The translations under genes were made by a program, and so were the position numbers. Below the pieces are notes generated by a model, which did not search any database, was not told where the DNA came from, and saw nothing but the letters and a program-made list of their open reading frames with translations. A stretch of 64,000 nucleotides of DNA from an uncultured bacterium (GTDB lineage: Bacteria > Zixibacteria > MSB-5A5 > GN15 > FEB-12): the NCBI GenBank assembly GCA_965372795.1, contig CBDVDR010000005.1, positions 32,001 to 96,000 on the forward strand, written 5' to 3'. Of this stretch, positions 42,208 through 53,543 are shown one piece after another. Positions within the stretch are counted from its first letter, which is position 1. Each line of letters begins with the position of its first letter.

Positions 42208-42526
42208 ATGTGAAGAAAATTCAAAACGATTACATCATTGCAAATCTTAGCTCTTTTCGGACAATTCTTCTTTAGGCAATGTTACAATCAGACCTTAAAC
42301 TATCTCATAATAGTACAAAATACTTGAAAATTATTAACTTCAACCTTGACGTTTACAAAGATATTATATATTTTCAATTACATTGAGTTGGGTATAACTC
42401 TTTATAAAGTATAGAGTTTTCATCCTAATTATTTTACAACAAACGTATTTGATTGTCGTATAAAGAGTAACGAATAAAGAGTTAAATTTTGACGGTTATG
42501 CCGTCAATTAAATTATATTGGAGTTT

Positions 42527-43399
42527 ATGATGGAACTCGACCTTCAGGGAAATATAGAACAATTCACATTACCGGAAATTTTTCAATTAGTTGCTTCGGG
42601 ACGTAAATCCGGAACTTTGGGTATTCAGCAAGAAGATACCATTGTTATGATTTATTTCCAGGAAGGTGAGATTATTTACGGGTATGGTCCTCGTGAGACA
42701 TTTCATATTGGCAGTTTACTTAAGGATAAAGGAATCATTTCCAGCGAGCAGCTTGATGAGGCGGTTCGTCAACAAGCCAAAACAGAAAACACAAAGCGCC
42801 TTGGTGAAATTCTTATATCCAAAAATTATATTGATAAGACCGATCTAAATAATGTTGTCACCAATCAGATTGAAGAACTTCTATATTCTCTTCTGACCTG
42901 GAAATCGGGCACCTTTAAGTTTTATGAAAACCAATTCCCCACTGATGAAGAAATTACTGTTAAAGTATCGGTTGAAAATGTTATTCTTGAGGGACTTCGC
43001 CGAACCGATGAAATGAATATGGTCAAAATGACATTACCGGACATTAATAAAGTGTACACCATCTCTGCCACTCAGGGAGACCGACCCCGGGATTTATCTA
43101 TGAAAGCTGATGAGTGGAATATTATGGCATTAGTTGACGGCCATAAAAATATTGATGAGATTTGTCAGATGAGTCATTTGTCTCGCGAGAAAACTTTGGT
43201 AAAACTGGCTCAACTCAAACTTGCCGGTTTAATCACTCCTTATGATCGTCCAAAATCTTCCGGATCATCAGGTGCTCCTGATCTTGAAAATATGATCAAT
43301 CATCTGGCTGGATTATTCGAAGACTACTTGACGGCTAAATCAGAATCCCGCCTTGACCATAGACAGACGACCAACACTTTTGTGGAGAATCTCGATTGA
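42527..43399 (+). CDS. DUF4388 (PATAN) protein with internal MshEN-like motifs and C-terminal winged helix
   Basis: LQGNIEQFTLPEIFQLV..KSGTL; IGSLL..G...EQLDEA..Q...RLGEILI; W.SGTFKF; ILEGLRRTDE. Confidence 0.82.
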   Translation: MMELDLQGNIEQFTLPEIFQLVASGRKSGTLGIQQEDTIVMIYFQEGEIIYGYGPRETFHIGSLLKDKGIISSEQLDEAVRQQAKTENTKRLGEILISKNYIDKTDLNNVVTNQIEELLYSLLTWKSGTFKFYENQFPTDEEITVKVSVENVILEGLRRTDEMNMVKMTLPDINKVYTISATQGDRPRDLSMKADEWNIMALVDGHKNIDEICQMSHLSREKTLVKLAQLKLAGLITPYDRPKSSGSSGAPDLENMINHLAGLFEDYLTAKSESRLDHRQTTNTFVENLD

Positions 43400-44058
43400 C
43401 CGATTATTTTACATTAAAATCCCTTGAAGGATTGCTTGAGGCATTTCTTGCCGGAGTGGTTCATGTTAAACAGAACAGGTTAAAAGTTATAGAGGGAATT
43501 AACCGCCTTGATGATATAGCTCGCTTTACGGATGAAAAGGGTTCAATTGATGATGCAATTGGTGATTGGTTTGCAGATCATTCCCAATGGCTGAATAAGC
43601 AGGATTTGAAGGAAAATGATATTTCACGTATAGGTGGACTTTTAGAAAATATCAGAGGTCATCTTGATCAGAATAAATTAAGTTCTCCTTCCCGCCGGAA
43701 AATCAGTTCAGAAATTGACCGGTGGAGTTCGATGGTAAGTAAAACTCCTAGAAAAGTAGTTTTAAAACGACCTCCAGAACTTAAAACATCAACCGAACAC
43801 GATACTATTGCGATGTATGCCAATCACTTAGATGACATGACCGCTCTTTTCAAGGATAAGGTTGAAGGAAAGAAACATATTCTTTCAATATTGGATGATG
43901 CCTTAAAATCGGCTGTTGACCAAAAGAATAAACAAGCCTTGCTTTTATCGGGGTATATCATATATTATCTCAAACTTGACGGGTACCTTGTCGAGCCTTA
44001 CGTAAAAAGGCTCAAACAAGCCGAACAGTTGCAAAAAGGAGACATGACAAATGCTTAA
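43396..44058 (+). CDS. Hypothetical helical protein
   Basis: 220-aa ORF overlapping both neighbours; no motif recognised. Confidence 0.6.
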   Translation: MTDYFTLKSLEGLLEAFLAGVVHVKQNRLKVIEGINRLDDIARFTDEKGSIDDAIGDWFADHSQWLNKQDLKENDISRIGGLLENIRGHLDQNKLSSPSRRKISSEIDRWSSMVSKTPRKVVLKRPPELKTSTEHDTIAMYANHLDDMTALFKDKVEGKKHILSILDDALKSAVDQKNKQALLLSGYIIYYLKLDGYLVEPYVKRLKQAEQLQKGDMTNA

Positions 44059-44299
44059 TCATTTTGAGAAAGCATATTGCCAGGCAATTATTGCACTCAA
44101 GGAGAAAAAATACCGTCAGGCAGCCAGTTGCTTTGAAAATGCGGCACCTTATTATTCCGATAACAAAGAATTTACTTTGTTGATGGAAACAAATAAGATG
44201 CTTTTGGTTGTTAAAGAGAAACTGGCCGAAGAAGAAAATGAAGAGATAATTATAAAGGAGGCGTTCGCGCATGGCAAAGAAACAGAGCTTCTCGGATAA
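44051..44299 (+). CDS. Small hypothetical protein with a single TPR-like hairpin
   Basis: SD AAGGAG; AY.QAI.AL..KKYRQAA..FE.A. Confidence 0.55.
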   Translation: MLNHFEKAYCQAIIALKEKKYRQAASCFENAAPYYSDNKEFTLLMETNKMLLVVKEKLAEEENEEIIIKEAFAHGKETELLG

Positions 44300-44459
44300 A
44301 TCATCCAAAAAGTCTCATTCTATGAGTTGCCCGGTTTGTCAGGAAGGTTTTCAGTTTATCAAATTTGTGAAGTCTGTCAAGACTGACGTTGGTGCTTGGA
44401 AATTCCGCTCACAAAATATCGGTGTCTGCAAATGTAACCATAAAGAAGTTTACGGCTAA
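44271..44459 (+). CDS. Small basic Cys-containing protein, DUF4295/bL38-like
   Basis: Strong SD AAGGAGG; MAKK...IKFVKSVKT..GAWKF pattern; CPVC and CKC. Confidence 0.6.
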   Translation: MAKKQSFSDKSSKKSHSMSCPVCQEGFQFIKFVKSVKTDVGAWKFRSQNIGVCKCNHKEVYG

Positions 44460-44577: not shown

Positions 44578-46632
44578 TTACTTATCCAATTGGTCTTTTG
44601 GATCTATTGGTTTTCCAGCTTTAATTAAGTCGTGTAGCTTCTGAACTCTTGATTCATTGGGACTCTTAATCTCATGAAAAATCTTTATTGCCTCTTCAAA
44701 ATTCCGTATTGATTGTTCAATGTTTTTAGCTCCATAAAAAGCCTTACCCATTTGCCAAAGTGTTAATCCTTTCTCTGAGGGAATTTCTATTTCGCTGTAA
44801 TAAGTAAGTGCCTCTTCATATTTTAAAATTGCCTGATCCCATCTTTCGTAAGCTCTGTCAACATTACCTAATCCCACCAAACAGTCTACTTCTCCATATC
44901 TATTTTTAATTTTTCGAAAAGTTATTTTAGCCTTTTCAAATAACTTTTCAGCAGAATTAAATTTGTTTTGCACTCGTTGAATATTGCCTTGTGAATAAAG
45001 AGTATTTACTTCACCAAATTCATCTCCAATTTTTTGATAGATCGATTTAGCCTTTTCATAATAATCTCTTGCAGAAACATATTGACGCTTCTGAAATTCT
45101 ATACCACCTTGCGAAAAAAGAACATTTGCGACTCCCTGTTTATCTCCAATTTTTTCGTAGATAGATTTTGCCTGCTTATAAAATTCTTCTGCAGAATCAA
45201 ATTGATATAGATAAAAATCAATATCGCCTTGCGATTTAAGAGTATTTGCTTCACCATGTTTACTTCCAATTTCTTGATAGATTGATTCCGCCCTTTTATA
45301 ATATTCTTTTGATAATTCATATTGATCCTTCTGTAACTCTATGCCGCCTTTTGAAAAAAGAACATTTGCAACACCCTGTTTATCTCCGATTTTTATGTAG
45401 ATAGATTCAGCCTGTTCATAAAATTCTTTTGCAGAATCATATTGATCCAGATAAAATTCTATATCACCTTGTGAGCGGAGCGTATTTGCTTTTCCCAGTT
45501 TACTTCCAATTTCTATGTAGATAGATTCAGCCTGTTCATAAAATTCTTTTGCAGAATGATATTGATCTTTTCGAAGTTCAATATCGCCAAGTGAACAGAG
45601 TGTAGTTGCTTCTCCGAGTTTATCGCCAATTTCTCGGTAGATTGTTTCGGCATGTATAAAATATTCTTTTGCTGTGTCGAATTGTTCCTCGTGCAGTTCT
45701 AAATCGCCCTGTGAAAGAAGTGTGTTCGCTTGACCAAGTTTATTCCCAATTTCCCAATATATTATTTTACTCTGTTCGTAATATTCTTTTGCTGAGTCAT
45801 ATTGGTTCTTCCTATGCTCAATATCGCCTTGTAATTTTATAGTATTTGCTACTCCGAGTTTATTTCCAATTTTATGGTAGATAGTTTCAGACTTTTTATA
45901 ATATATTTTTGCCTTATCATAATTTGATAATCTGTTTAGGGCCTGACCATGCGAAAAATTCAGATTCCCCCAAAACAAATCATCATCAATCTTTATTTCT
46001 CTTATTAAATGAATTTTGTCTAAAGCATTGTTCAATTGATATTTGTATAAATCAACTTGTATCTCCCAAAAAAGACAATAAGCTAAAGCTTTTTTTGAAA
46101 CAAGGGCAGCGAAACTTTGCTCATATATATTTCTTATAAGAGCTTCTATTTTATCATAAGCATAAAATGGAGGATTTAACCAATTTATACATGTATTATA
46201 AAATATATCTTCTCCTTTTTCAGCATCTGCGACCAAAAGATTTCGTATATATTCAATCATCCATCCGGTATCATCAAGGTTTTGATCTTTCCCGTAATTT
46301 GCTGCATTGAAACTTAGTATTTTGTAAGTTTTAGGATCGTTCTCCCACAAATGTTTTTGAAGTATTTTCCGGCTTCGTTCGTGAATGTTAAATCCTTTTC
46401 CTTCAAAAGGTTCAACATAGCTTAACGAAATCAAATCATCGAAACCTTTTATCGATGACTTATCTAGAGTTGCACTCAGATATTTTTCATCAAACCAAGT
46501 TAGAATTGAAGCTGCCCTGACTGCGTCACGAATTTCAGAATTGAGGTTTTCAAGGCTGAACTCCATAACCAGCCATTCCCGCTCTTCATCATTTTTGGCA
46601 TTTTCAAGTTTTGCCAGAAAATCTTCAATCAT
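44578..46632 (-). CDS. Winged-helix plus 40-aa TPR repeat protein (C-terminal half of a split STAND/NLR-like receptor)
   Basis: N-terminal AVRAASILTWFD..L..LSYVE..FNIHERSR (STAND WHD/MHD-like); about 11 TPR units of type G.ANTL.SQGDIE....QY.SAKEYY.QA.SIY..IG.K. Confidence 0.85.
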   Translation of the reverse strand: MIEDFLAKLENAKNDEEREWLVMEFSLENLNSEIRDAVRAASILTWFDEKYLSATLDKSSIKGFDDLISLSYVEPFEGKGFNIHERSRKILQKHLWENDPKTYKILSFNAANYGKDQNLDDTGWMIEYIRNLLVADAEKGEDIFYNTCINWLNPPFYAYDKIEALIRNIYEQSFAALVSKKALAYCLFWEIQVDLYKYQLNNALDKIHLIREIKIDDDLFWGNLNFSHGQALNRLSNYDKAKIYYKKSETIYHKIGNKLGVANTIKLQGDIEHRKNQYDSAKEYYEQSKIIYWEIGNKLGQANTLLSQGDLELHEEQFDTAKEYFIHAETIYREIGDKLGEATTLCSLGDIELRKDQYHSAKEFYEQAESIYIEIGSKLGKANTLRSQGDIEFYLDQYDSAKEFYEQAESIYIKIGDKQGVANVLFSKGGIELQKDQYELSKEYYKRAESIYQEIGSKHGEANTLKSQGDIDFYLYQFDSAEEFYKQAKSIYEKIGDKQGVANVLFSQGGIEFQKRQYVSARDYYEKAKSIYQKIGDEFGEVNTLYSQGNIQRVQNKFNSAEKLFEKAKITFRKIKNRYGEVDCLVGLGNVDRAYERWDQAILKYEEALTYYSEIEIPSEKGLTLWQMGKAFYGAKNIEQSIRNFEEAIKIFHEIKSPNESRVQKLHDLIKAGKPIDPKDQLDK
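44860..45900 (-). repeat. Intragenic tandem 120-nt repeats encoding TPR units
   Basis: Identical 44-nt block TATGTAGATAGATTCAGCCTGTTCATAAAATTCTTTTGCAGAAT at 45394-45437 and 45514-45557; near-identical blocks 240 nt apart at about 45113 and 45353. Confidence 0.9.
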
Positions 46633-47423
46633 TATTTATCTGTCTTTAATGGTAAATTCATAATTACTTTCATAATTGCTTCTGGTCGACCCTTGAAAGC
46701 ATGACATACACCTGCAAGCCAGTTCAGTGGATTCTCCACCTCAATATGACGATTTAATTCTTCAACAACAGGCATCCAATCTTTAGCATCAGGGATTCCC
46801 AATAAAGGATAATGATTACAACAATCACCCCACCCAATATTTTTTATATCTGGTATACATTGACCGGCTACAAGAACTCTCATTTGAGGAGTATCTGAGA
46901 CATGTCCTAAAAATGAATCATCCAACCAACTTTTAAACACACTTGTTGCTTTTTCAAAAGTATCTATAATTATCAGCAGGTTATTATCAAAATTTTTAAT
47001 ATCCTGAAACCATGCGTTTGTTAATATCGATTGACGTATTCTTTTATCTTCTTCCTTTTCAGCTCTTAAGGCAATTTCAATACTGCTTCTATCACCTTTT
47101 AATTTGACGTCTTTAATATTAAGATTTATAGTCGTATGTTCAGAATATGTTGAAACCTCATGTTGGAATTCAGGCAATAGTTCCCAGCCCAGTTTATTTA
47201 CTGATCTATAAAAAATATCTGTAACAGAGATTGTTCCGGATTTGCAATCAAAGCCAATATGAATAAGGTCATCTGGGATCCTATTCTTACAGTCAAAAAG
47301 CAGTTTAGTTTTCCCACTACCACTTTCACCTTCAAAAAATAAAATAGGCTTGTCACAATCGGAACAACATAACTCATCAAAAGCGGAACGTTCATCTACA
47401 TAATCTGCGAAAACAGTTGACAT
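46632..47423 (-). CDS. Stand-alone STAND-type P-loop NTPase (AAA_16/NB-ARC-like)
   Basis: Walker A GESGSGKT, Walker B LLIIIDTFE, sensor strand RVLVAGQ, terminal GxP (KGRP); TAATG overlap with the TPR gene. Confidence 0.85.
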   Translation of the reverse strand: MSTVFADYVDERSAFDELCCSDCDKPILFFEGESGSGKTKLLFDCKNRIPDDLIHIGFDCKSGTISVTDIFYRSVNKLGWELLPEFQHEVSTYSEHTTINLNIKDVKLKGDRSSIEIALRAEKEEDKRIRQSILTNAWFQDIKNFDNNLLIIIDTFEKATSVFKSWLDDSFLGHVSDTPQMRVLVAGQCIPDIKNIGWGDCCNHYPLLGIPDAKDWMPVVEELNRHIEVENPLNWLAGVCHAFKGRPEAIMKVIMNLPLKTDK

Positions 47424-47431
47424 ATTGTTTA

Positions 47432-47749
47432 TTAGTCCTCTTTAGGTCCGATATCAATCTTACTACCTTTACCAATAATTTGAATTTTCTTTGCCTCTAA
47501 ATCATCACCCTTAATTTTAATCTCACTTTCGTCACCATCGATCTTAACATCTTCAATGTCTGCTTTTGTTTCTCCTGTTTGACCGGTGTCTTTCATCTCA
47601 ACCCCGGCCTCTATGCCATCATTGTTAAATTTAAGAAATAATTTCTTTATTTTTTTGCGATTTGGATAAATTACAACAAAAAATAACACCAAGACTACAA
47701 AAGAAATTAAAATAACTAATTGGGTTGTATCCATATCGAAAATCCCCAC
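47432..47749 (-). CDS. Small single-TM protein with C-terminal 21-aa-period beta pseudo-repeats
   Basis: TM LVILISFVVLVLFFVVIY, basic stop-transfer segment, repeats ADIEDVKIDGDESEIKIKG and LEAKKIQIIGKGSKIDIG; likely start ATG 47734 after GGGGA; 8 nt from the NTPase start. Confidence 0.75.
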   Translation of the reverse strand: MGIFDMDTTQLVILISFVVLVLFFVVIYPNRKKIKKLFLKFNNDGIEAGVEMKDTGQTGETKADIEDVKIDGDESEIKIKGDDLEAKKIQIIGKGSKIDIGPKED

Positions 47750-47897
47750 ATGTATAATTAGAAAGTCTTATAACTATTTTTTAATTCTTATTATCCTAAT
47801 ATCTGCCTGCTATAGAGATATATCTCTAATATCATTATATAATATTAAATAGTGAACCAATTATCAATAGATTTTTTCTAGTATTTTGTATTGTCCC

Positions 47898-48797
47898 CTA
47901 AGCGTGGGATGTGAGCGGGAAAAGGTATTCAGTATCTTCAAGGGGGAAATCACTCAACAGGTGGGTGCCGTTATCGGTTACCGGAATTAAGTTATCTGCG
48001 ACTGAAACTGAATTGAATTCTTCTAACTTTAATTTGTCCGGCATAAATAAAAACTCGACCGCCTTATCACTCTCATTACAGAGGTATGGATACAGTTCCG
48101 AAAATATCGGAATCTTTTTAGCAACAATATCATAAACGGTAACCGTTCCCTTGTCCCGTTTGAATGATACGATTGTATCAAGCTCTTTGATGTAGTAAAG
48201 ATTATCATTCAAAACATATAAACACCAAAACATAAACAGACGCGGATTGTAAACACCTAACAGGTCAGAGACTGATTCTCTTTCATTGGCATATTTGTAA
48301 ATAAAATCAAGGTCGGCTTTATTGCTGATCTCCAACTTTTTCAAATCTCGTTTGGGAGTTCCCCCGTCAATTTTAATATTTGTTTTATACTCTTCTACTT
48401 TCCTAAAACCGCGATTTTTATAATATTCCTGGGCATCTTCATCAGCAAAAAGGAAAAAGAAATCATGGTTCGGTTTTGCCCAATCCATTGCTTTTTGAGT
48501 AAGTTCAAGATTCAACCCCTGTTTGCGATAATCAGGATGCGTCCCTACCCCGGAAATTTGAGCCACCAATTTACGCTGGCCATTTACAACCATATCCATA
48601 GAATAGACGCAAACATTTGACACTAACATATCTTTGTTAAAGTATGAGAAGGGTCGATAATTATTATCCCAGTAGCCGGCTTTATCCCAAAGAGTAAGAT
48701 CAAGGTTGTGGATAAAATTAAGATGTTTGATGAATTTATCTTTTGACTCTAAATCGTTCCAGTAATTTTCTTTATAAATCAAATCCATAAAAAACAA
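47898..48797 (-). CDS. GNAT family N-acetyltransferase
   Basis: QISGVGTHPDYRKQGL, YYKNRGF. Confidence 0.88.
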   Translation of the reverse strand: MFFMDLIYKENYWNDLESKDKFIKHLNFIHNLDLTLWDKAGYWDNNYRPFSYFNKDMLVSNVCVYSMDMVVNGQRKLVAQISGVGTHPDYRKQGLNLELTQKAMDWAKPNHDFFFLFADEDAQEYYKNRGFRKVEEYKTNIKIDGGTPKRDLKKLEISNKADLDFIYKYANERESVSDLLGVYNPRLFMFWCLYVLNDNLYYIKELDTIVSFKRDKGTVTVYDIVAKKIPIFSELYPYLCNESDKAVEFLFMPDKLKLEEFNSVSVADNLIPVTDNGTHLLSDFPLEDTEYLFPLTSHA

Positions 48798-48821
48798 TAC
48801 CTTTGTATAATCGTAGAGAAT

Positions 48822-49697
48822 TTATTCGCGCCACAAAGGTCTTGTCAGACAGGTAGGACCGCCGGCACCTTTGGCGGATATTTCATTTCCCTTATAGGTC
48901 AGCACCTCGGCACCAGCCTTTTCAAGGCGTTTCTTTGTAACCGGATTACCCTCAATAGCAATACATTTACGAGGAGCAATCGCCAGGACATTGCAACCCA
49001 TCGAATCAAATTCTTCTTCAGGGACTTCCACCAGTTCTATCCCCCGTTCAAGCAGCCAATTTCTGAAGGGAACCGGCATGATTTTAGAATAAACCAGGGC
49101 AAGGTTTGAATCTATCGGACTGATAAATGACATGAGATGCATGACATCATTAACACCCGTCCAATGCGGAAGCGGCACAACAACAAACTCATCAACTAAG
49201 TCAATCGTTAATTCTCTAAGCTGATCAATGCCAGCTTTATTGGTTCGATAGCCATGCCCAACAACCAAGGTTCGCTCATCAAGCCAGACAATATCGCCAC
49301 CCTCCATTGAACCATCCTCGCAAATCTTCCCTAAAACCGGTACTCCGATTTTTTCAAGATACGCTCCGACCAGAGCCGGTTCGTTTTTTCGATCTTCTTT
49401 TCCCATATTAGCCAAAATCGCACCGTTTTTTGTAATTATAGAAGTATCACGCACGTAGATAGAATCTATTCCAGCTTCAACCGATGATGGCAAATACTCA
49501 AAGTTATCAATCTCAGATTTTAATAATTCCTCAAATTGTTCATACTCATCGAGGGCTTCATTAAAATCAGGGCAATCAAGATAGTTAAATTTTTTCCAGT
49601 ATTCGTCAAGTTTTGATTGGGCGATAAAAGCATCTTTGGGATGACTTAAAAGAATTCTTCTGATATTCGAGATTTCAGACTGACTGCCATGAGACAT
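48822..49697 (-). CDS. Amidinotransferase/dimethylarginine dimethylaminohydrolase family protein
   Basis: YVRD, EGGD, RTN..G, MHL, GGPTCLT (pentein catalytic Cys). Confidence 0.88.
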   Translation of the reverse strand: MSHGSQSEISNIRRILLSHPKDAFIAQSKLDEYWKKFNYLDCPDFNEALDEYEQFEELLKSEIDNFEYLPSSVEAGIDSIYVRDTSIITKNGAILANMGKEDRKNEPALVGAYLEKIGVPVLGKICEDGSMEGGDIVWLDERTLVVGHGYRTNKAGIDQLRELTIDLVDEFVVVPLPHWTGVNDVMHLMSFISPIDSNLALVYSKIMPVPFRNWLLERGIELVEVPEEEFDSMGCNVLAIAPRKCIAIEGNPVTKKRLEKAGAEVLTYKGNEISAKGAGGPTCLTRPLWRE

Positions 49698-49766
49698 ACT
49701 TACTCCTTTAAAAAACAGGGAAAACCAGTAAGTTATTAAAATTATTGAATTAATAGCCCTTTATAT

Positions 49767-52700
49767 TCATTCATCAGAATCTATTAGTTTTTGAATAGTA
49801 AAGTCAAGTTCAGAAAATTTATAAGGTTTTGAGATGACAGCAGAAAAGCCATACTTTTCATGGTCAGCCAAAATCAAATCATTTGAGAAGCCACTGCATA
49901 CAATTGCTTTAACTTTCGGATCAATACGAAGCAATTGTTCGATTGTCTCTTCCCCCCCCATTCCTTCGGGAACAACGAGATCAAGAACAACCACATTATA
50001 AGGTTTTTTGTTCTTCTTAGCTTTCTTGAACAGCTTAAGGGCTTCTTCGCCATCTTTGGCAACATCAATTTTATAACCATATTTTGTAAAGGATCGAATT
50101 GCAAGATTACGCAATAATTCTTCATCATCCATAATTAAAACAAAACCTTTGTTAACTTTTTTGATTCCTTCAATATGTTTAGGTTTTGTTTTTGTAGCAG
50201 CAGGCAGATAAATTGTAAAGACCGACCCCGTACCAATTACAGAATCAACTTCAATGTGTCCTTCGTGTTTAACTAAGATAGAATACGCCGCCGCTAATCC
50301 AAGCCCAGAATGAGAAGTACGGGTTGAGAAATAAGGGTCAAAAACTTTTCTCAGGTTCTTTTTTGAAATCCCTTTACCTGCATCCGTGAACGAAACTTTG
50401 ATGAATTTTCCATTTTTAACTGGGAGCTTATTTTTTTCAGTAATTAAAATATTGGAAGCAGCTATTTTGACAGAACCACCATTGGGCATAGCCTGGATGG
50501 CATTTTCAACGATGTTATGGATTACCTGACTTATCTGGCTAATATCAATGTTTACAGACTGAAGATTTTTAGCAATTTCCACCTCAGCTTTTATTTTTGA
50601 ATCAGTTAAAGCCAACATGACCGAATCACGCAATAATCTTTCAATTTCGGCGGGTTCTTTTACCAGGTTACTGCCTTCTGAGTAGGTCAATAACTGCTGG
50701 GTTAAACTTCTTGCACGCCAACCCGCCTTCTCAGCTTCGGTCAACACATCAAAAAGGTCATCATCTTCATCAAGGTCAAGTTTTGCAAAAGAGATATTCC
50801 CAAGGATACCAGTTAATAGGTTATTAAATCCGTGAGCAATACCACCAGCTAAAGTTGCAACCGATTCGAGTTTTTGATTATTTAAAAGTTCCTGTTCATA
50901 TTTTTTTCGTTCAATAAAAGTTCCGATTTCAATTGCAAGGGTCTCCAGGAGCTGTTTTTCTTCTTCATGAAAAGATTCTTCAAATTTCAAAGATTTTTCA
51001 TTCTTGCGATAGACTTCAAGCGTGCCGTATTTATCACCAGAGATAGAAAATTTAAAAATTTTATTACAATTTGATTTTTTAAATTTATTTGAAGATATTT
51101 CTCTATTATCGAACACAATCCTAACAGACGAACAATTGGGATAGCGCAGAGACTTCGCAATTAAGTTAGTGATTTCCTGTAAGACGGTATCTTCAGATTT
51201 GTCAAATTGAATAACAAGTTTTGCAAATTTATTTAAACAATTAAGCTGATTAACTTTAATTTTTAATTGTTCAGTTTGTTCTCGAGCAATTTTCTGAGCT
51301 AATTTTTTTTCAGTAATATCAACACCGACACCATCAATATATTGAATTTCGCCTTTATCGTTTTTTATGGCTGTCATGTTTGCTGAGATCCACCGGGAAG
51401 TACCATCTTTTCTTTTTACATAAAGTTCAATATCTTTGGCAATTCCCTTTTTATTAAGAATATCTATCATTTTTTTTCTAGCATCGGGATCGACATAAAA
51501 TTCACGGCTAGAGACAGCAAGCATTTCTTTCTCTGATTTATATCCCGCGGCTTTTAAAACCGTCGTATTGACCGAGATAAGTTTCCCTTTGGGAGTGGAA
51601 CGGAAAATTCCAACCGGTACATTATTCTGTAAGGTCCGAAGTCTGTTTTCCGACTCCTTAATAGCTTCCTCATTTCGCCGCCTCTCAATCGCATTAGCAA
51701 AAATATCCCCAACAAACCTAAGTAAGGAAATCAGTTTTTCATCCCATTCTCGAACTTCCCCTACATCATCAAAAACACCAAGGGCTCCAATTAAATTTTC
51801 TTCAGTAGTAAGCGGAACAAATAAAAACGGTCGGAATTCTTTCTTTTTTAACCAAAGGATTTCAGGCTTTAGATATGACGGTATATCTTCCAAACTTGAG
51901 AATGCCACATTTTCATCTCTTTTAAATTGTTCGAGATAGAACCCAAAAACTTCAATCGGCACATCCTTAAGCAGTTCAATCTGAGAATCTTTTCTTTTTG
52001 CGCACCACTCATGAGAGTTATAGACTTCTTCGAGATCGGGTGAAAAGAGGAAAAGGGAACATCTTGAAACAGATGCAAATTTTGCAATTTCTTTCAGAGC
52101 TTGAGTGATTGAGCGGTCAATTTTATTTACGGGAATATTAATTAATTCTGCCGAAATTGCAGAGATAAGCTGCTCAAAATCAAGCCAATACTTTAGTTCA
52201 TCTTCAGAACGCTGGCGCTGGGTTATATCCAAAACAGTGCCTATCATTCTTGCAGGTTGGCCAGAATCATCAACAAATATTTCCGATTCTGAATGAAAAT
52301 ATTTGATTTCTCCGTCTTCACAAATGATCCCATAATCAGCACCGAATCCTTTTTCACCGGCGGCAGCTTGTTTCATTAACTTTTTAATTCTTTGCCGATC
52401 TTCCGGAATAACATAGTCGATCCATTCATGGTGCAATGGTCCCAATTCTTTGGGGCGTTTATAAAAAGTGTATAATTCATCAGACCAGGTTATTTCATCA
52501 TTGATCATATCCCATTCCCAGTATCCAATTTGAGCAACTCGCCGTGATTCAGCAAACAGGTTATGGCTTTCACGCAAGGCTCTTTCAGCAAGGATAGTTT
52601 CGGTTCTGTCTTCATGGGTGATTATAACATTGATGACTTTGCCATTTGTGTCTTTAAGAGGAAAGATTCGGCTATTAACCCATCGTGCATTAGACTGAGT

Positions 52701-53543
52701 TTCAGAGATGATAGGCTCCAACTCAACATTGGAAAGGATTGTATTTTTTCCTTTTCTAGCTTTTTCAAAAGCTGAGGTATAACCCTGGATTATTGCTGTT
52801 GGATCGGAAAGAATATTATACTGGTCGATTGCTTGATTAGCTATAACATCAAAAAAGTTTTCAAAAGCTTGATTCACTCTAATTTGAAAACCATTTAAAT
52901 CAAAAATTTCAATAGGGACGGGTGATTGCTCAATTATCAGGTCAGCTAATAGTTTTGTTTCCTGAAGCTTCTTTTCCTGATTTTTAATCTGGGTTAAATC
53001 AGTTATTGAAGTACGAATCTGGAAAAATTCTTTCATATCCCCAAAAACAGGAATGCTTTCCAGATAAACATCGAAAATTGAACCATCTTTTTTTACCAGC
53101 TTGAGTTCGCAAAACTGCTTTGTTTTAGAATCTTCTACTTTTTGTCTATGCAGGGTAAAGTGTTTTTTGTCTTTTGAGGATATAAACGGGTTAAAGGTCT
53201 GACCGATAATGCTTCGTTTATCAATCCCTAAAAGGTCGGCACCATGCTGGTTAATTTCGAGGACTTTCCCTTTACTGCAAAATGATACATATCCGATGGG
53301 AGCAAAATCATATAAGTTATAATATCTATTTCTGGAGAGCTCAAGTTCATTTTTAACAGTCTGAAATTCAATACAGTTTTCTTCTAATACCGTTAGAGTT
53401 TCTTTGGTTTCATTTAGAAATTTATTAAACTGCTTTTCAAAGGCTGAATTTAGATTTTTAGTTTTATTTGCAAGAAGTTTTTCTATTTTAGACTGTAATT
53501 GATTTGTTTTCTTTAAAAAATTATTAGATTTATTCACGTTCAA
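49767..53543 (-). CDS. Cytoplasmic multi-PAS/GAF hybrid histidine kinase with C-terminal receiver
   Basis: Several PAS/PAC units (APIGY, IGYWEWD, VPVGIF), GAF, H box GGIAHGFNN, N/G boxes, REC VLIMDDE..LDL..KPY. Confidence 0.92.
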   Translation of the reverse strand: MNVNKSNNFLKKTNQLQSKIEKLLANKTKNLNSAFEKQFNKFLNETKETLTVLEENCIEFQTVKNELELSRNRYYNLYDFAPIGYVSFCSKGKVLEINQHGADLLGIDKRSIIGQTFNPFISSKDKKHFTLHRQKVEDSKTKQFCELKLVKKDGSIFDVYLESIPVFGDMKEFFQIRTSITDLTQIKNQEKKLQETKLLADLIIEQSPVPIEIFDLNGFQIRVNQAFENFFDVIANQAIDQYNILSDPTAIIQGYTSAFEKARKGKNTILSNVELEPIISETQSNARWVNSRIFPLKDTNGKVINVIITHEDRTETILAERALRESHNLFAESRRVAQIGYWEWDMINDEITWSDELYTFYKRPKELGPLHHEWIDYVIPEDRQRIKKLMKQAAAGEKGFGADYGIICEDGEIKYFHSESEIFVDDSGQPARMIGTVLDITQRQRSEDELKYWLDFEQLISAISAELINIPVNKIDRSITQALKEIAKFASVSRCSLFLFSPDLEEVYNSHEWCAKRKDSQIELLKDVPIEVFGFYLEQFKRDENVAFSSLEDIPSYLKPEILWLKKKEFRPFLFVPLTTEENLIGALGVFDDVGEVREWDEKLISLLRFVGDIFANAIERRRNEEAIKESENRLRTLQNNVPVGIFRSTPKGKLISVNTTVLKAAGYKSEKEMLAVSSREFYVDPDARKKMIDILNKKGIAKDIELYVKRKDGTSRWISANMTAIKNDKGEIQYIDGVGVDITEKKLAQKIAREQTEQLKIKVNQLNCLNKFAKLVIQFDKSEDTVLQEITNLIAKSLRYPNCSSVRIVFDNREISSNKFKKSNCNKIFKFSISGDKYGTLEVYRKNEKSLKFEESFHEEEKQLLETLAIEIGTFIERKKYEQELLNNQKLESVATLAGGIAHGFNNLLTGILGNISFAKLDLDEDDDLFDVLTEAEKAGWRARSLTQQLLTYSEGSNLVKEPAEIERLLRDSVMLALTDSKIKAEVEIAKNLQSVNIDISQISQVIHNIVENAIQAMPNGGSVKIAASNILITEKNKLPVKNGKFIKVSFTDAGKGISKKNLRKVFDPYFSTRTSHSGLGLAAAYSILVKHEGHIEVDSVIGTGSVFTIYLPAATKTKPKHIEGIKKVNKGFVLIMDDEELLRNLAIRSFTKYGYKIDVAKDGEEALKLFKKAKKNKKPYNVVVLDLVVPEGMGGEETIEQLLRIDPKVKAIVCSGFSNDLILADHEKYGFSAVISKPYKFSELDFTIQKLIDSDE

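Follow-up and report, generated by a model that had tools for sequence, protein, structure and literature searches.

We read three neighbouring minus-strand genes in the window, the whole 64,000-nucleotide stretch of DNA that was analysed, as an NLR-like module for regulated cell death or immunity, and we hold with modest confidence that its output runs through a shared 17-21-residue beta-arch motif by amyloid-type templating. Output would be coupled through this motif rather than through a fused effector domain, with one copy in a loop of the NTPase and two copies at the C-terminus of the candidate effector. Judged from the sequence comparisons set out below, the resemblance between these copies is beyond chance.

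Architecture of the three-gene locus

The ORF list places the trio on the minus strand at 47432-47749 (105 aa), 46632-47423 (263 aa) and 44578-46632 (684 aa), with an 8-nt gap between the small gene and the NTPase gene and a TAATG overlap between the NTPase gene and the third gene, all exactly as the preliminary description had it when it called the three genes tightly coupled. The small gene probably starts at the ATG at 47734, giving a protein of 100 aa and correcting the 105-aa ORF-track start at GTG 47749, since homologues align from that ATG, the 100-aa form occurs in a public protein collection, and GGGGA lies 8 nt upstream. Upstream of the operon, a promoter-like site (47839..47867, minus strand) matches the consensus at 10 of 12 positions, which is weak evidence; the region 5′ of the operon holds 14 promoter-like sites against 16.5 expected from shuffled sequence, and thus no excess. 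We saw no defence-island context within the window, where the neighbours are housekeeping-like or signalling genes, and this counts against our main reading. Conserved synteny with relatives stops at the 3′ end of the TPR gene, and the NTPase is present in 1 of 285 genomes of the window’s phylum; both observations point to an accessory gene set, which was counted in favour of our main reading.

The middle gene (46632..47423, minus strand) encodes a STAND-type NTPase made up of a nucleotide-binding domain and a helical domain with a GxP motif, and its polypeptide carries neither a winged-helix domain (WHD) nor a sensor. Pfam returned AAA_22, AAA_16 and NACHT, all below the cut-off. The AlphaFold2 (AF2) model of the protein (mean pLDDT 90, pTM 0.85) had its best Foldseek matches in MalT (8bob_C, 5.2e-6), PaBY2304 (2qen, 6.6e-6), ORC/Cdc6 and CED-4 (8jo0/2a5y), at modest TM-scores of 0.35-0.56. 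In an alignment of 29 sequences, G32, G35, G37, K38 and T39 of the Walker A box (47307..47330, minus strand; residues 32-39) are invariant, as are G245 and P247 of the GxP motif (46683..46691, minus strand), where AF2 predicts helices at 232-255. A GxP motif in the helical domain after the nucleotide-binding domain is a hallmark of STAND proteins. In the Walker B strand (46953..46979, minus strand; residues 149-157, AF2 strand at 149-154) D154 is invariant and the second acidic residue is displaced, the sequence reading DTFE. The single internal motif copy (47073..47123, minus strand) occupies residues 101-117, in a loop between helix 84-96 and helix 111-119; with the boxes at 32-39 and 149-157, it indeed falls between Walker A and Walker B, where it had first been placed. 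Its G110 and I115 are nearly invariant, and residues 100-108 are the sole segment of the NTPase model with a pLDDT below 50, a flexible position that we take as further support for an amyloid or beta-solenoid reading.

No repeat sensor was found on the NTPase polypeptide, and none of the 150 best NTPase-family representatives is longer than 524 aa; the TPR array is encoded instead by a translationally coupled gene of its own, and this holds for the window and for 20 of 20 loci. This array, the presumed sensor (44623..45927, minus strand), matches TPR_12 at 5.7e-55 and TPR_MalT at 2.1e-14 in Pfam, which bears out the TPR part of the WHD+TPR protein that had been claimed. The N-terminal stretch of about 225 residues (45958..46632, minus strand), kept in 15 of 15 aligned loci, is probably a MalT-like winged-helix domain with a first helical part, and would supply the half of the NOD that the NTPase lacks. 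Of 30 ESM Atlas matches to this start, 28 were clusters with WHD_MalT (score 0.94), a language-model lead only, and Pfam and PDB sequence searches with the start of the protein gave no match. We read the sensor as a MalT-type STAND NTPase split over two genes, nucleotide-binding and helical domains on the first and a probable WHD and the TPRs on the second. It resembles MalT-type STAND NTPases in its fold match to 8bob_C (E 5e-6), its TPR_MalT match, its WHD_MalT lead, and its Walker A/B and GxP motifs, and differs from MalT in being split between the helical domain and the probable WHD, in lacking a DNA-binding output and in possessing the motif loop.

The first gene (47432..47734, minus strand, from the inferred start) encodes the small candidate effector of 100 aa, which runs from a TM helix at the N-terminus through a juxtamembrane hairpin and a linker to two motif repeats at the C-terminus. 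The single TM helix (47666..47725, minus strand) is predicted from a hydrophobic run and from an AF2 helix at 3-22 (pLDDT about 86), and is kept in 15 of 15 aligned homologues; RKKIKK follows it directly, so by the positive-inside rule the C-terminus would be cytoplasmic. AF2 further placed a hairpin at 29-47 and modelled the repeats as four strands of low confidence, whose pLDDT of about 50 weighs against our main reading. The small protein, whose family numbers 89 proteins, had no Pfam match and no HeLo match, Pfam and the AF2 model (one TM helix and a hairpin) gave no Bell or Babybell helical domain, and no solved chain proved related when the alignment of the small proteins was run as a profile against solved chains.

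A motif shared by the NTPase and the upstream protein

Effector repeat 1 (47513..47563, minus strand) has a 17-mer core at residues 63-79 of the 105-aa ORF, and repeat 2 (47450..47500, minus strand; residues 84-100), charge-complementary to repeat 1, is anchored on G93, which lies 21 residues past G72 of repeat 1, where a second copy in the TM protein had been noted. The core of repeat 1 and the NTPase motif are identical at 9 of 17 positions. The narrower comparison from which the preliminary description set out also reproduced, with 9 of 15 identities between NTPase residues 103-117 and residues 65-79 of the 105-aa ORF, and charge reversals at four of the six differences.

We collected 21 loci with upstream sequence, the window and 20 others. 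A matrix built from the upstream repeats only, applied leave-one-out, hit the insert in exact register with its top-scoring 17-mer in 20 of 21 NTPases, all but that of locus L026, which bears out the expectation that the NTPases keep an insert resembling the C-terminus of the upstream protein. The insert score had an empirical p ≤ 0.007 in 19 of the 21, against decoys of 600 ORFs of the window’s own genome per locus. Genome-wide, among 11,782 six-frame ORFs of at least 60 aa, the two top scores belonged to the small gene and the NTPase gene, in a scan whose matrix of 63 copies included the window’s own three, and the window’s genome yielded no further motif copies.

The suggestion that the insert co-varies with the upstream C-terminus stood in part. 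Over all 21 loci, partner co-variation reached z=5.37 by BLOSUM and z=5.21 by identity, a value attained by 0 of 20,000 shuffles; in 18 dereplicated loci z was 5.2-5.3, and the true partner ranked first of 21 in six of the 21 loci. Inside the largest clade (11 loci) no locus-specific co-variation could be detected: z was 0.4 and 0.25, and 6966 and 9062 of 20,000 shuffles did at least as well as the true pairing, which weighs against our main reading. Co-variation therefore holds at the level of clades (z about 5.3) but not inside the largest one (z 0.4), and the overall signal rests on about five clades.

That the resemblance is a chance or low-complexity match of two charged, beta-prone segments without function appears to us extremely improbable. 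The single pairwise match is short (BLASTP of the NTPase against the small protein, 12/29 identities, E=0.002 for that single comparison), and a genome search with a generic 17-column HMM of the repeats gave no significant match, missing even the window’s own genes. However, the register-exact match in 20 of 21 loci and the clade-level co-variation already contradict chance, and the conservation of G110 and I115 and the synteny of the trio also speak against it.

The charges of the two effector repeats (r1 and r2) follow a regular pattern. Across the 21 loci, r1/r2 charge pairs at identical positions were opposite in 49 cases and of the same sign in 6, against a null of 26.6 +/- 3.9 opposite and 26.0 same, and 0 of 5000 shuffles reached the observed value. 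In a register scan, the opposite/same counts were 43/5 at parallel offset 0; elsewhere in parallel the ratio stayed at about 0.7-2.75, and opposite pairs never exceeded 22 in any antiparallel register. The 89-protein family, reduced to 19, gave 54 opposite and 5 same-sign pairs versus a null of 23.6 +/- 3.8 (0 of 5000 shuffles). At the sequence level, we regard this in-register charge complementarity as a signature of stacked beta-solenoid rungs. The NTPase copy shares charge sign with r2 at 29 positions (null 20.7, P=0.005) and with r1 at only 9 (null 14.8), and on these counts it is repeat-2-like in charge and complementary to r1. In the 89-protein family the effector repeats are contiguous, with periods of 21, 18, 20 or 19 residues. 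HET-s rungs are 21 residues long and carry salt-bridge pairs, and the trio is like HET-s both in its 21-residue repeat length, seen in the window and in 20 of the 89 family members, and in its complementary charges at equivalent positions.

The same pattern bears on an alternative that we consider possible but rather unlikely, in which the motif is a finite adaptor and not an amyloid, forming a closed three-layer beta-sandwich or mini-solenoid of fixed stoichiometry (two effector rungs and one NTPase rung). The motif would then be the beta-strand equivalent of an EAD, the effector would be pre-bound or recruited one-to-one, and activation would come about by induced proximity upon NTPase oligomerisation, without templated propagation. 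An NTPase copy that is complementary to r1 and r2-like fits a defined three-rung stack, and a highly charged motif with salt-bridge-type complementarity also suits a soluble, specific complex. Open-ended r1-r2-r1-r2 stacking is, however, equally satisfied by the r1/r2 complementarity, and the bare TM helix gains a plausible killing activity only through higher-order clustering. Moreover, two effector repeats with one receptor copy is the templating layout given for HET-s and BASS1/6 by Dyrka et al., 2020.

Homologous loci and exchange of effector heads

The trio proved syntenic elsewhere on both sides of the NTPase gene, with a co-directional upstream ORF bearing two repeats in 21 of 21 loci and a homologous WHD-like/TPR gene next downstream in 20 of 20 distinct loci that had at least 400 nt past the NTPase. 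Hosts include Chloroflexota, Acidobacteriota, Planctomycetota-type MAGs, the window’s organism and cyanobacteria. The N-terminal module of the upstream gene is swapped between loci, as had been proposed: the tail carries a TM helix in 16 loci, EAD7 in two (L020 and L023; 1e-19 and 8e-24) and an alpha/beta-hydrolase in one (L018; Abhydrolase_6, 1.6e-8), and in the remaining two the head is cut by the contig end.

These heads inform a further reading, to which we give little credence, that the small protein is not an effector but serves as a membrane anchor or regulator, using the motif to tether or sequester the NTPase at the membrane, with output elsewhere (nucleotide hydrolysis, unlinked partners). 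It would suit a protein that has no enzymatic or pore-forming domain and consists, motif apart, of a TM helix and a short hairpin. The EAD7 versions in L020 and L023 are moreover themselves adaptors, implying further unlinked partners, and inspection of the 2 kb upstream of L023 revealed no EAD7 effector. In contrast, the same tail sits on an alpha/beta-hydrolase in L018, the window’s genome has no further motif copy, and in relatives of the NTPase a fused TIR, trypsin-like, caspase or PNP_UDP domain replaces the motif, so the motif-linked position is the output position. The association of motif loss with effector fusion was strong in raw counts and not significant after kinship control, and was counted against our main reading.

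Within the family, EAD7 is found in the tail protein, at the NTPase C-terminus and as an insertion at the motif site. The last of these is seen in protein P0153, in which EAD7 takes up residues 110-171, flanked by NTPase stretches 1-95 and 159-326. As an adaptor placed where the motif would be, this insertion was counted among the evidence for our main reading. That the motif site hosts a helical, non-amyloid adaptor also counts against templating and in favour of the finite adaptor, since simple adaptor binding would suffice at such a site. An internal loop tethered at both ends is likewise a geometrically harder template than a free N-terminus.

Relation to known systems and proposed output

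The trio family had no match in PADLOC, Pfam or the literature, and the cassette is not a described system by PADLOC, Pfam or NCBIfam. In PADLOC-DB 2.0 neither the TM protein nor the NTPase matched any family, and the third protein matched generic TPR models only. The three departures from known cases that had been claimed also hold, namely the internal motif, the division of the NLR between two genes and an effector consisting of hardly more than a TM helix.

Amyloid-signalling pairs are among the closest known systems. Like the Bell/NLR pairs of BASS1-10 (Dyrka et al., 2020, bioRxiv 10.1101/2020.01.06.895854), the trio consists of collinear neighbours whose ends overlap or almost meet, has a short beta-prone motif common to the effector C-terminus and a STAND/TPR receptor, and comes with alternative effector heads, an alpha/beta-hydrolase among them; as in some BASS families, two effector pseudo-repeats face one receptor copy. 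BASS motifs are enriched in Q, N, G, V and I and depleted in P and L (Dyrka et al., 2020). In general composition, the level at which the two were compared, our motif is similarly N/G/Q/V/I-rich and P-poor (I 13%, N 12%, V 12%, G 9%, Q 7%, L 5.5%, P 0.1%). Unlike in BASS, K shows no depletion (6.9%); the motif carries an unusual amount of charge and the window’s copies are especially rich in K, D and E, which argues against the amyloid reading. The trio also differs from BASS pairs in that its receptor carries the motif internally, at residues 101-117 between Walker A and B, rather than at the N-terminus, two genes share the coding of the NOD, a TM helix with a small hairpin stands in place of the Bell domain, and the hosts extend beyond cyanobacteria to the other groups listed above. 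The published BASS screen looked at NLR N-termini only (Dyrka et al., 2020).

In the E. coli Bab/Agp antiphage system with BASS11 (Ibarlosa et al., 2024, bioRxiv 10.1101/2024.11.07.622273), as here, a small protein (about 100-109 residues) has a hydrophobic helix at its N-terminus and the motif at its C-terminus, and is encoded beside a TPR-containing sensor with the same motif. Agp, however, has no NTPase and bears its motif N-terminally (residues 2-25), whereas the trio has an NTPase with an internal motif, and Bab combines a helical ‘Babybell’ domain with a single motif with four glycines, whereas the small protein has two repeats with one invariant G each. BASS11 also occurs on EAD7, TIR and CHAT proteins (Ibarlosa et al., 2024), a range echoed here by the tail on EAD7 proteins and by an NTPase family with TIR and caspase fusions. 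HET-S/NWD2 of Podospora anserina (Dyrka et al., 2020) resembles the trio in pairing an effector that has two pseudo-repeats with an NLR that has one, and in a membrane-targeting output, which is predicted in our case. The repeats here are contiguous, without the flexible G/P-rich loop of 6-15 residues of HET-s, the effector is already membrane-anchored and has no HeLo domain, the receptor copy is internal, unlike that of NWD2, and the trio has no detectable sequence relation to HET-S/NWD2.

EAD-coupled STAND/NTPase conflict systems (Kaur et al., 2020, PMC7159879; 2021, PMC8195603) likewise have matched modules on a core NTPase and separate effectors, with adjacent copies most alike (here at clade level only) and interchangeable effector heads, and EAD7 itself is found in the NTPase/tail family. 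This pattern of matched copies, most similar when adjacent (PMC7159879), supports the finite adaptor, as does the helical EAD7 at the same site of the nucleotide-binding domain in P0153. EADs are folded and mostly alpha-helical, whereas the module here is a 17-21-residue beta-arch repeat of predicted strands, modelled as disordered in the NTPase monomer. The accessible portions of the two papers make no mention of the trio family, an internal beta motif or amyloid, and the terms ‘amyloid’, ‘split’ and ‘inserted into’ have 0 occurrences each in PMC7159879.

Returning to templating as our preferred reading, we infer TPR-driven oligomerisation, templating or cross-seeding, open-ended polymerisation, fibril formation, membrane damage and a role in defence. 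Binding of a ligand to the TPR array would lead the NTPase/WHD-TPR pair to oligomerise and would bring neighbouring NTPase loops together into a parallel, in-register cross-beta (beta-solenoid-like) template. Effector repeat 1 would dock on this template because the template’s charges resemble those of repeat 2, and more effector tails would then add in the order r1-r2-r1-r2. In the window’s version, polymerisation of the tails would cluster the TM helices of the single-pass protein and thereby damage the membrane; at other loci, the same tail may drive an alpha/beta-hydrolase or an EAD7 adaptor. On its sequence features, the trio looks like the prion-like ‘death switch’ of fungi and filamentous bacteria, with the sensor’s copy of the motif placed inside the ATPase domain.

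A three-gene module and its distribution

The preliminary description had proposed three tightly coupled minus-strand genes, and all three are present where it placed them: a small effector ORF (47432-47749, 105 aa in the ORF track), an NTPase ORF (46632-47423, 263 aa), and a third ORF encoding a TPR protein (44578-46632, 684 aa). The coupling is also as claimed, with an 8-nt gap between the small gene and the NTPase gene and a TAATG stop/start overlap between the NTPase gene and the third gene. The small gene most likely starts at the ATG at 47734, giving a protein of 100 aa, because homologues align from that methionine, the public form has 100 aa, and a GGGGA lies 8 nt upstream. Searches of the small protein against Pfam, NCBIfam, and PADLOC gave zero matches, and a PDB search with its family profile turned up no related chain. 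In Pfam, the NTPase matched AAA_22, AAA_16, and NACHT, all below threshold, and the third protein matched TPR_12 (5.7e-55) and TPR_MalT (2.1e-14). The juxtamembrane segment that follows the transmembrane (TM) helix of the small protein (47609-47665, minus strand; residues 29-47 of the 100-aa protein) is conserved and is predicted to form a beta-hairpin (pLDDT ~67-72).

Scans of genomes and metagenome contigs yielded 22 distinct loci with a near full-length NTPase relative (loci outside the window carry L numbers; L019 repeats L005). A co-directional ORF with two motif repeats, ending at or within ~25 nt of the NTPase start, lies upstream in all 21 loci that could be scored (20 plus the window), L012 and L014 being outside this count since both begin at a contig edge. 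Downstream, a homologue of the third gene directly follows the NTPase gene in 20/20 loci with at least 400 nt of sequence on that side; the contigs of L023 and L025 end too early to be counted. The trio therefore keeps its synteny in both directions, as had been anticipated. Going by record titles, its hosts include a Candidatus Brocadia MAG, Anaerolineae/Chloroflexota MAGs, an Acidobacteriota MAG, and others, and the small-protein family numbers 89 proteins, including members from Pseudanabaena, Anabaena, Leptolyngbya, and Limnothrix. Distribution of the module is patchy: one genome out of 285 in the window's phylum carries it. From the phylum of L004, 10 genomes in a sample of 401 matched at E<=1e-10, only one of them with a strong full-length match. 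The trio of L002, whose record is titled as a Paraglaciecola arctica MAG, has the Brocadia locus L001 as its closest counterpart, and their small proteins are similar over almost the full length; misbinning or a recent transfer could account for this. At L003:4617-5789, in an Anaerolineales MAG, the NTPase lies in two frames with a break at ~5276/5277, reflecting either a frameshift or an assembly error.

In the window itself, a run of four plus-strand genes (42518-44459) keeps its synteny in four relatives belonging to the same family. Synteny with those relatives breaks off at the 3' end of the TPR gene, and the right-hand neighbour of the trio was found in one of five relatives. The genes at 47898-53543, which encode a 299-aa protein, an amidinotransferase-like protein, and a 1258-aa PAS/histidine-kinase hybrid, are absent at the corresponding places in those relatives. 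A 62-aa ORF with a CxxC...CxC pattern (44271-44459, plus strand) is conserved in relatives, at up to 81% identity over 43 residues, and overlaps the end of an 82-aa ORF (44051-44299). We looked for a defence-island context in the window and found none.

A motif shared by the NTPase and its upstream effector

The two motif peptides of the NTPase and the small protein read as originally reported, with 9/15 positions identical and charge reversals accounting for four of the six differences, and a second copy does occur in the small protein 21 residues further on. Considered as a 17-mer beta-arch, the motif is found twice at the C-terminus of the upstream protein (repeats 1 and 2) and once in the NTPase, at residues 101-117, after Walker A and before Walker B. 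When the genome of the window was searched with an HMMER profile of the repeats (17 columns), no match reached significance, the window's own genes included. In its place we used a gapless log-odds matrix, which was built from the upstream-protein repeats only, with the tested locus left out, and was calibrated on 600 decoy ORFs per locus. With this repeat-only matrix, the insert was the best 17-mer, in exact register, in 20/21 NTPases, and its match reached an empirical p <=0.007 in 19/21. The sole NTPase missed by the matrix was that of L026, which is divergent and cyanobacterial-type. The L026 NTPase copy has its own five-residue signature in common with repeat 2. The consensus is hydrophobic-x-hydrophobic-x-x-N-x-x-x-G-x-x-N/Q-x-I-x-V, and, judged from sequence, a motif common to the NTPase and the upstream protein is real.

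It had been suggested that the insert would co-vary with the C-terminus of the upstream gene, and this held between clades but not inside the largest one. NTPase copies resembled their own upstream partners more than shuffled ones (z ~5.3; 0/20,000 shuffles reached the observed value), with the same outcome for 18 dereplicated loci, whereas within an 11-locus Chloroflexota-type clade the signal disappeared (z 0.4). Clade-specific signatures are common to both genes; the Brocadia-like clade, which includes the window, has I/V where most others have N. The co-variation signal is carried by about five independent lineages. When sister loci were paired, the own combination scored above the crossed one in three of seven cases (20 vs 13 for the window and L001, 17 vs 13 for L021/L022, and 12 vs 5 for L026/L027), while two pairs were tied and two went in the opposite direction.

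The proposed swapping of the N-terminal effector module was borne out, as different heads sit on one two-repeat tail. The head is a single TM helix in 16 loci, an alpha/beta-hydrolase in L018 (Abhydrolase_6, 1.6e-8), and the effector-associated domain EAD7 in L020 and L023 (1e-19 and 8e-24); in two loci it is cut by the contig end. No EAD7-bearing effector was seen within 2 kb upstream near L023. Swapped heads on one tail are also a published pattern for bacterial amyloid signalling sequences (BASS) and fungal motifs (Dyrka et al., 2020).

The charged positions of the motif are 4, 5, 11, 12, 14, and 16; positions 1, 3, 15, and 17 are hydrophobic, position 6 is N, and position 13 is N/Q. Comparing repeat 1 with repeat 2 at the same positions across 21 loci gave 49 opposite-charge and 6 same-charge pairs, against 26.6 +/- 3.9 opposite and 26.0 same under a shuffled-partner null that never reached the observed value (0/5000). 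The excess appeared at parallel offset 0 only (43 to 5 in 18 dereplicated loci) and was absent from other parallel offsets and from antiparallel registers. Charge complementarity was found again in the 89-protein family reduced to 19 (54 to 5; null 23.6 +/- 3.8; 0/5000). A beta-solenoid-like arrangement, with repeat 1 stacked on repeat 2 in parallel register, would be expected to give this pattern. HET-s is built in this way, as a beta-solenoid with repeats stacked in parallel register. Repeats recur every 21 residues in the window and in 20/89 family members, every 20 in four, and every 19 in two; in a cyanobacterial subfamily of 63/89, whose named members include ones from Pseudanabaena, Anabaena, Leptolyngbya, and Limnothrix, the period is 18. 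AlphaFold2 predicted four strands for the effector tail, but with low confidence (pLDDT ~50).

The NTPase copy has charges like those of repeat 2 (29 same-sign positions vs 20.7 in the null, P=0.005) and avoids like charges with repeat 1 (9 same-sign vs 14.8), and should therefore stack on repeat 1. How far such stacking would extend allows two readings. With two rungs in the effector and one in the NTPase, the copies could close into a three-rung adaptor complex, which we consider less likely; we lean, by a modest degree, towards open-ended stacking of an amyloid, prion-like kind.

The NTPase fold and its inter-Walker site

The AlphaFold2 model of the NTPase, made from a 29-sequence alignment, had a mean pLDDT of 90 and a pTM of 0.85, and its best Foldseek matches were MalT (8bob_C, 5.2e-6), the archaeal ATPase 2qen, ORC/Cdc6 subunits, and CED-4. 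Walker A, the Walker B aspartate D154, and G245-x-P247 are invariant in the family alignment. From this invariance together with the fold matches it follows that the NTPase spans the nucleotide-binding and helical domains: it is a STAND-type NTPase cut short, ending where a winged helix would come next. A Ras-like GTPase reading, which came from P-loop-only PDB matches in a profile search (midasin, Rab GTPases), was rejected because the fold search groups the NTPase with MalT, CED-4, and ORC.

The first ~225 residues of the third protein form a region conserved across the aligned loci. Neither a PDB profile search nor Pfam, run on 15 members, found a winged-helix domain at the start of the protein, and a word-indexed search with residues 1-225 returned a single relative. 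In the ESM Atlas, 28 of the 30 nearest named clusters to this start carry WHD_MalT (score 0.94), and a WHD_MalT-type winged helix at this position is accordingly best treated as a lead.

Only at residues 100-108, between helix 84-96 and helix 111-119, does the pLDDT of the NTPase model fall below 50. An exhaustive profile search with the NTPase family returned 2108 representatives at E<=1e-3, 874 at <=1e-10, and 226 at <=1e-30. The best 150 are mostly stand-alone proteins of ~255-265 residues. Other family members are fused to another domain: TIR (P0143, P0220), a trypsin-like peptidase (P0188), a caspase (P0190), a winged-helix regulator domain (P0125), PNP_UDP (P0179), or EAD7 at the N-terminus (P0231) or C-terminus (P0137, P0148, P0222). 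Of these, P0143, P0220, P0188, P0190, P0179, P0125, P0137, P0148, and P0222 are all-in-one counterparts of the split system, and the motif is absent from most of them.

In P0153 (327 aa), NTPase stretches 1-95 and 159-326 flank an inserted EAD7 (residues 110-171), which sits precisely at the motif site. P0215 (368 aa) has an unnamed helical insert of ~120 residues at the same inter-Walker site. On these sequences, adaptor modules in general seem to use this site as a port.

The motif pattern, whose false-positive rate is 8.6%, occurs at the site in 88/103 stand-alone vs 3/24 fused members (Fisher 1.4e-11, which ignores kinship). On a FastTree tree, fusion state changes 10 times and offers just 6 independent well-supported contrasts; a kinship-aware sign test of motif loss against fusion gave ~4.3 contrasts in the expected direction and 0.5 in the other (median p 0.22, not significant). 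Since the link does not reach significance once kinship is controlled over these 6 contrasts, complementarity between the motif and a fused effector is only suggestive.

Proposed mechanism and its place among amyloid-signalling systems

In the best-supported reading, a MalT-type NLR split over two genes is linked through the motif to an effector that can be swapped. Motif copies would stack in parallel register with the NTPase loop as the first rung, or template, and the window's effector would be a membrane-anchored protein whose clustering would harm the membrane. The parts of this scheme that we infer for the module are oligomerisation, the sensing of a ligand, damage to the membrane, and a role in defence.

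A broader reading, which we put forward tentatively and hold to be less than an even prospect, is that the inter-Walker loop serves this STAND family as a general 'adaptor port', mostly occupied by a single amyloid rung, which would put the template of a prion-like polymer in a folded ATPase domain. Exposure and stacking of the template could then be directly gated by nucleotide state or ring assembly, and a ring of n protomers would offer n pre-aligned rungs as a nucleus.

Fungi provide the established examples of amyloid signalling between NLRs and effectors; more recent demonstrations come from filamentous bacteria and an E. coli antiphage system. To our knowledge, the motifs are terminal in all known cases; in the present family, in contrast, the receptor copy is inside the nucleotide-binding domain. 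The closest published systems are the Bell/BASS-NLR pairs (Dyrka et al., 2020), the E. coli antiphage pair Bab/Agp with BASS11 (Ibarlosa et al., 2024), the fungal pair HET-S/NWD2, and the principle of effector-associated domains (Kaur et al.). Dyrka et al. (2020) defined BASS at the NLR N-terminus with a screen that covered N-termini only, and a 2026 review (PMC13506858) still places BASS motifs there. Among the titles and abstract openings returned by a full-text literature search, whose coverage is incomplete and does not extend to supplementary BASS tables, no paper dealt with an internal NLR-side motif or with the present NTPase family.

If the adaptor-port reading is true, the family would provide the first receptor motif for amyloid signalling located within a catalytic domain, and a whole class would have been missed by screens limited to NLR N-termini. 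The receptor copy occupies a site where relatives have EAD7, which joins helical effector-associated domains and amyloid motifs, concepts so far kept apart. The effector is near-minimal, one TM helix and two rungs, and the rungs have a clear charge code from which the stacking order of the layers can be predicted; the module is therefore an attractive system in which to ask by what means a folded ATPase could nucleate a cross-beta polymer, whether specificity between paralogous systems is set by charge complementarity, and how a single helix, once clustered, can be lethal to the cell. For genome mining of amyloid signalling motifs, internal NLR loops are worth scanning too.
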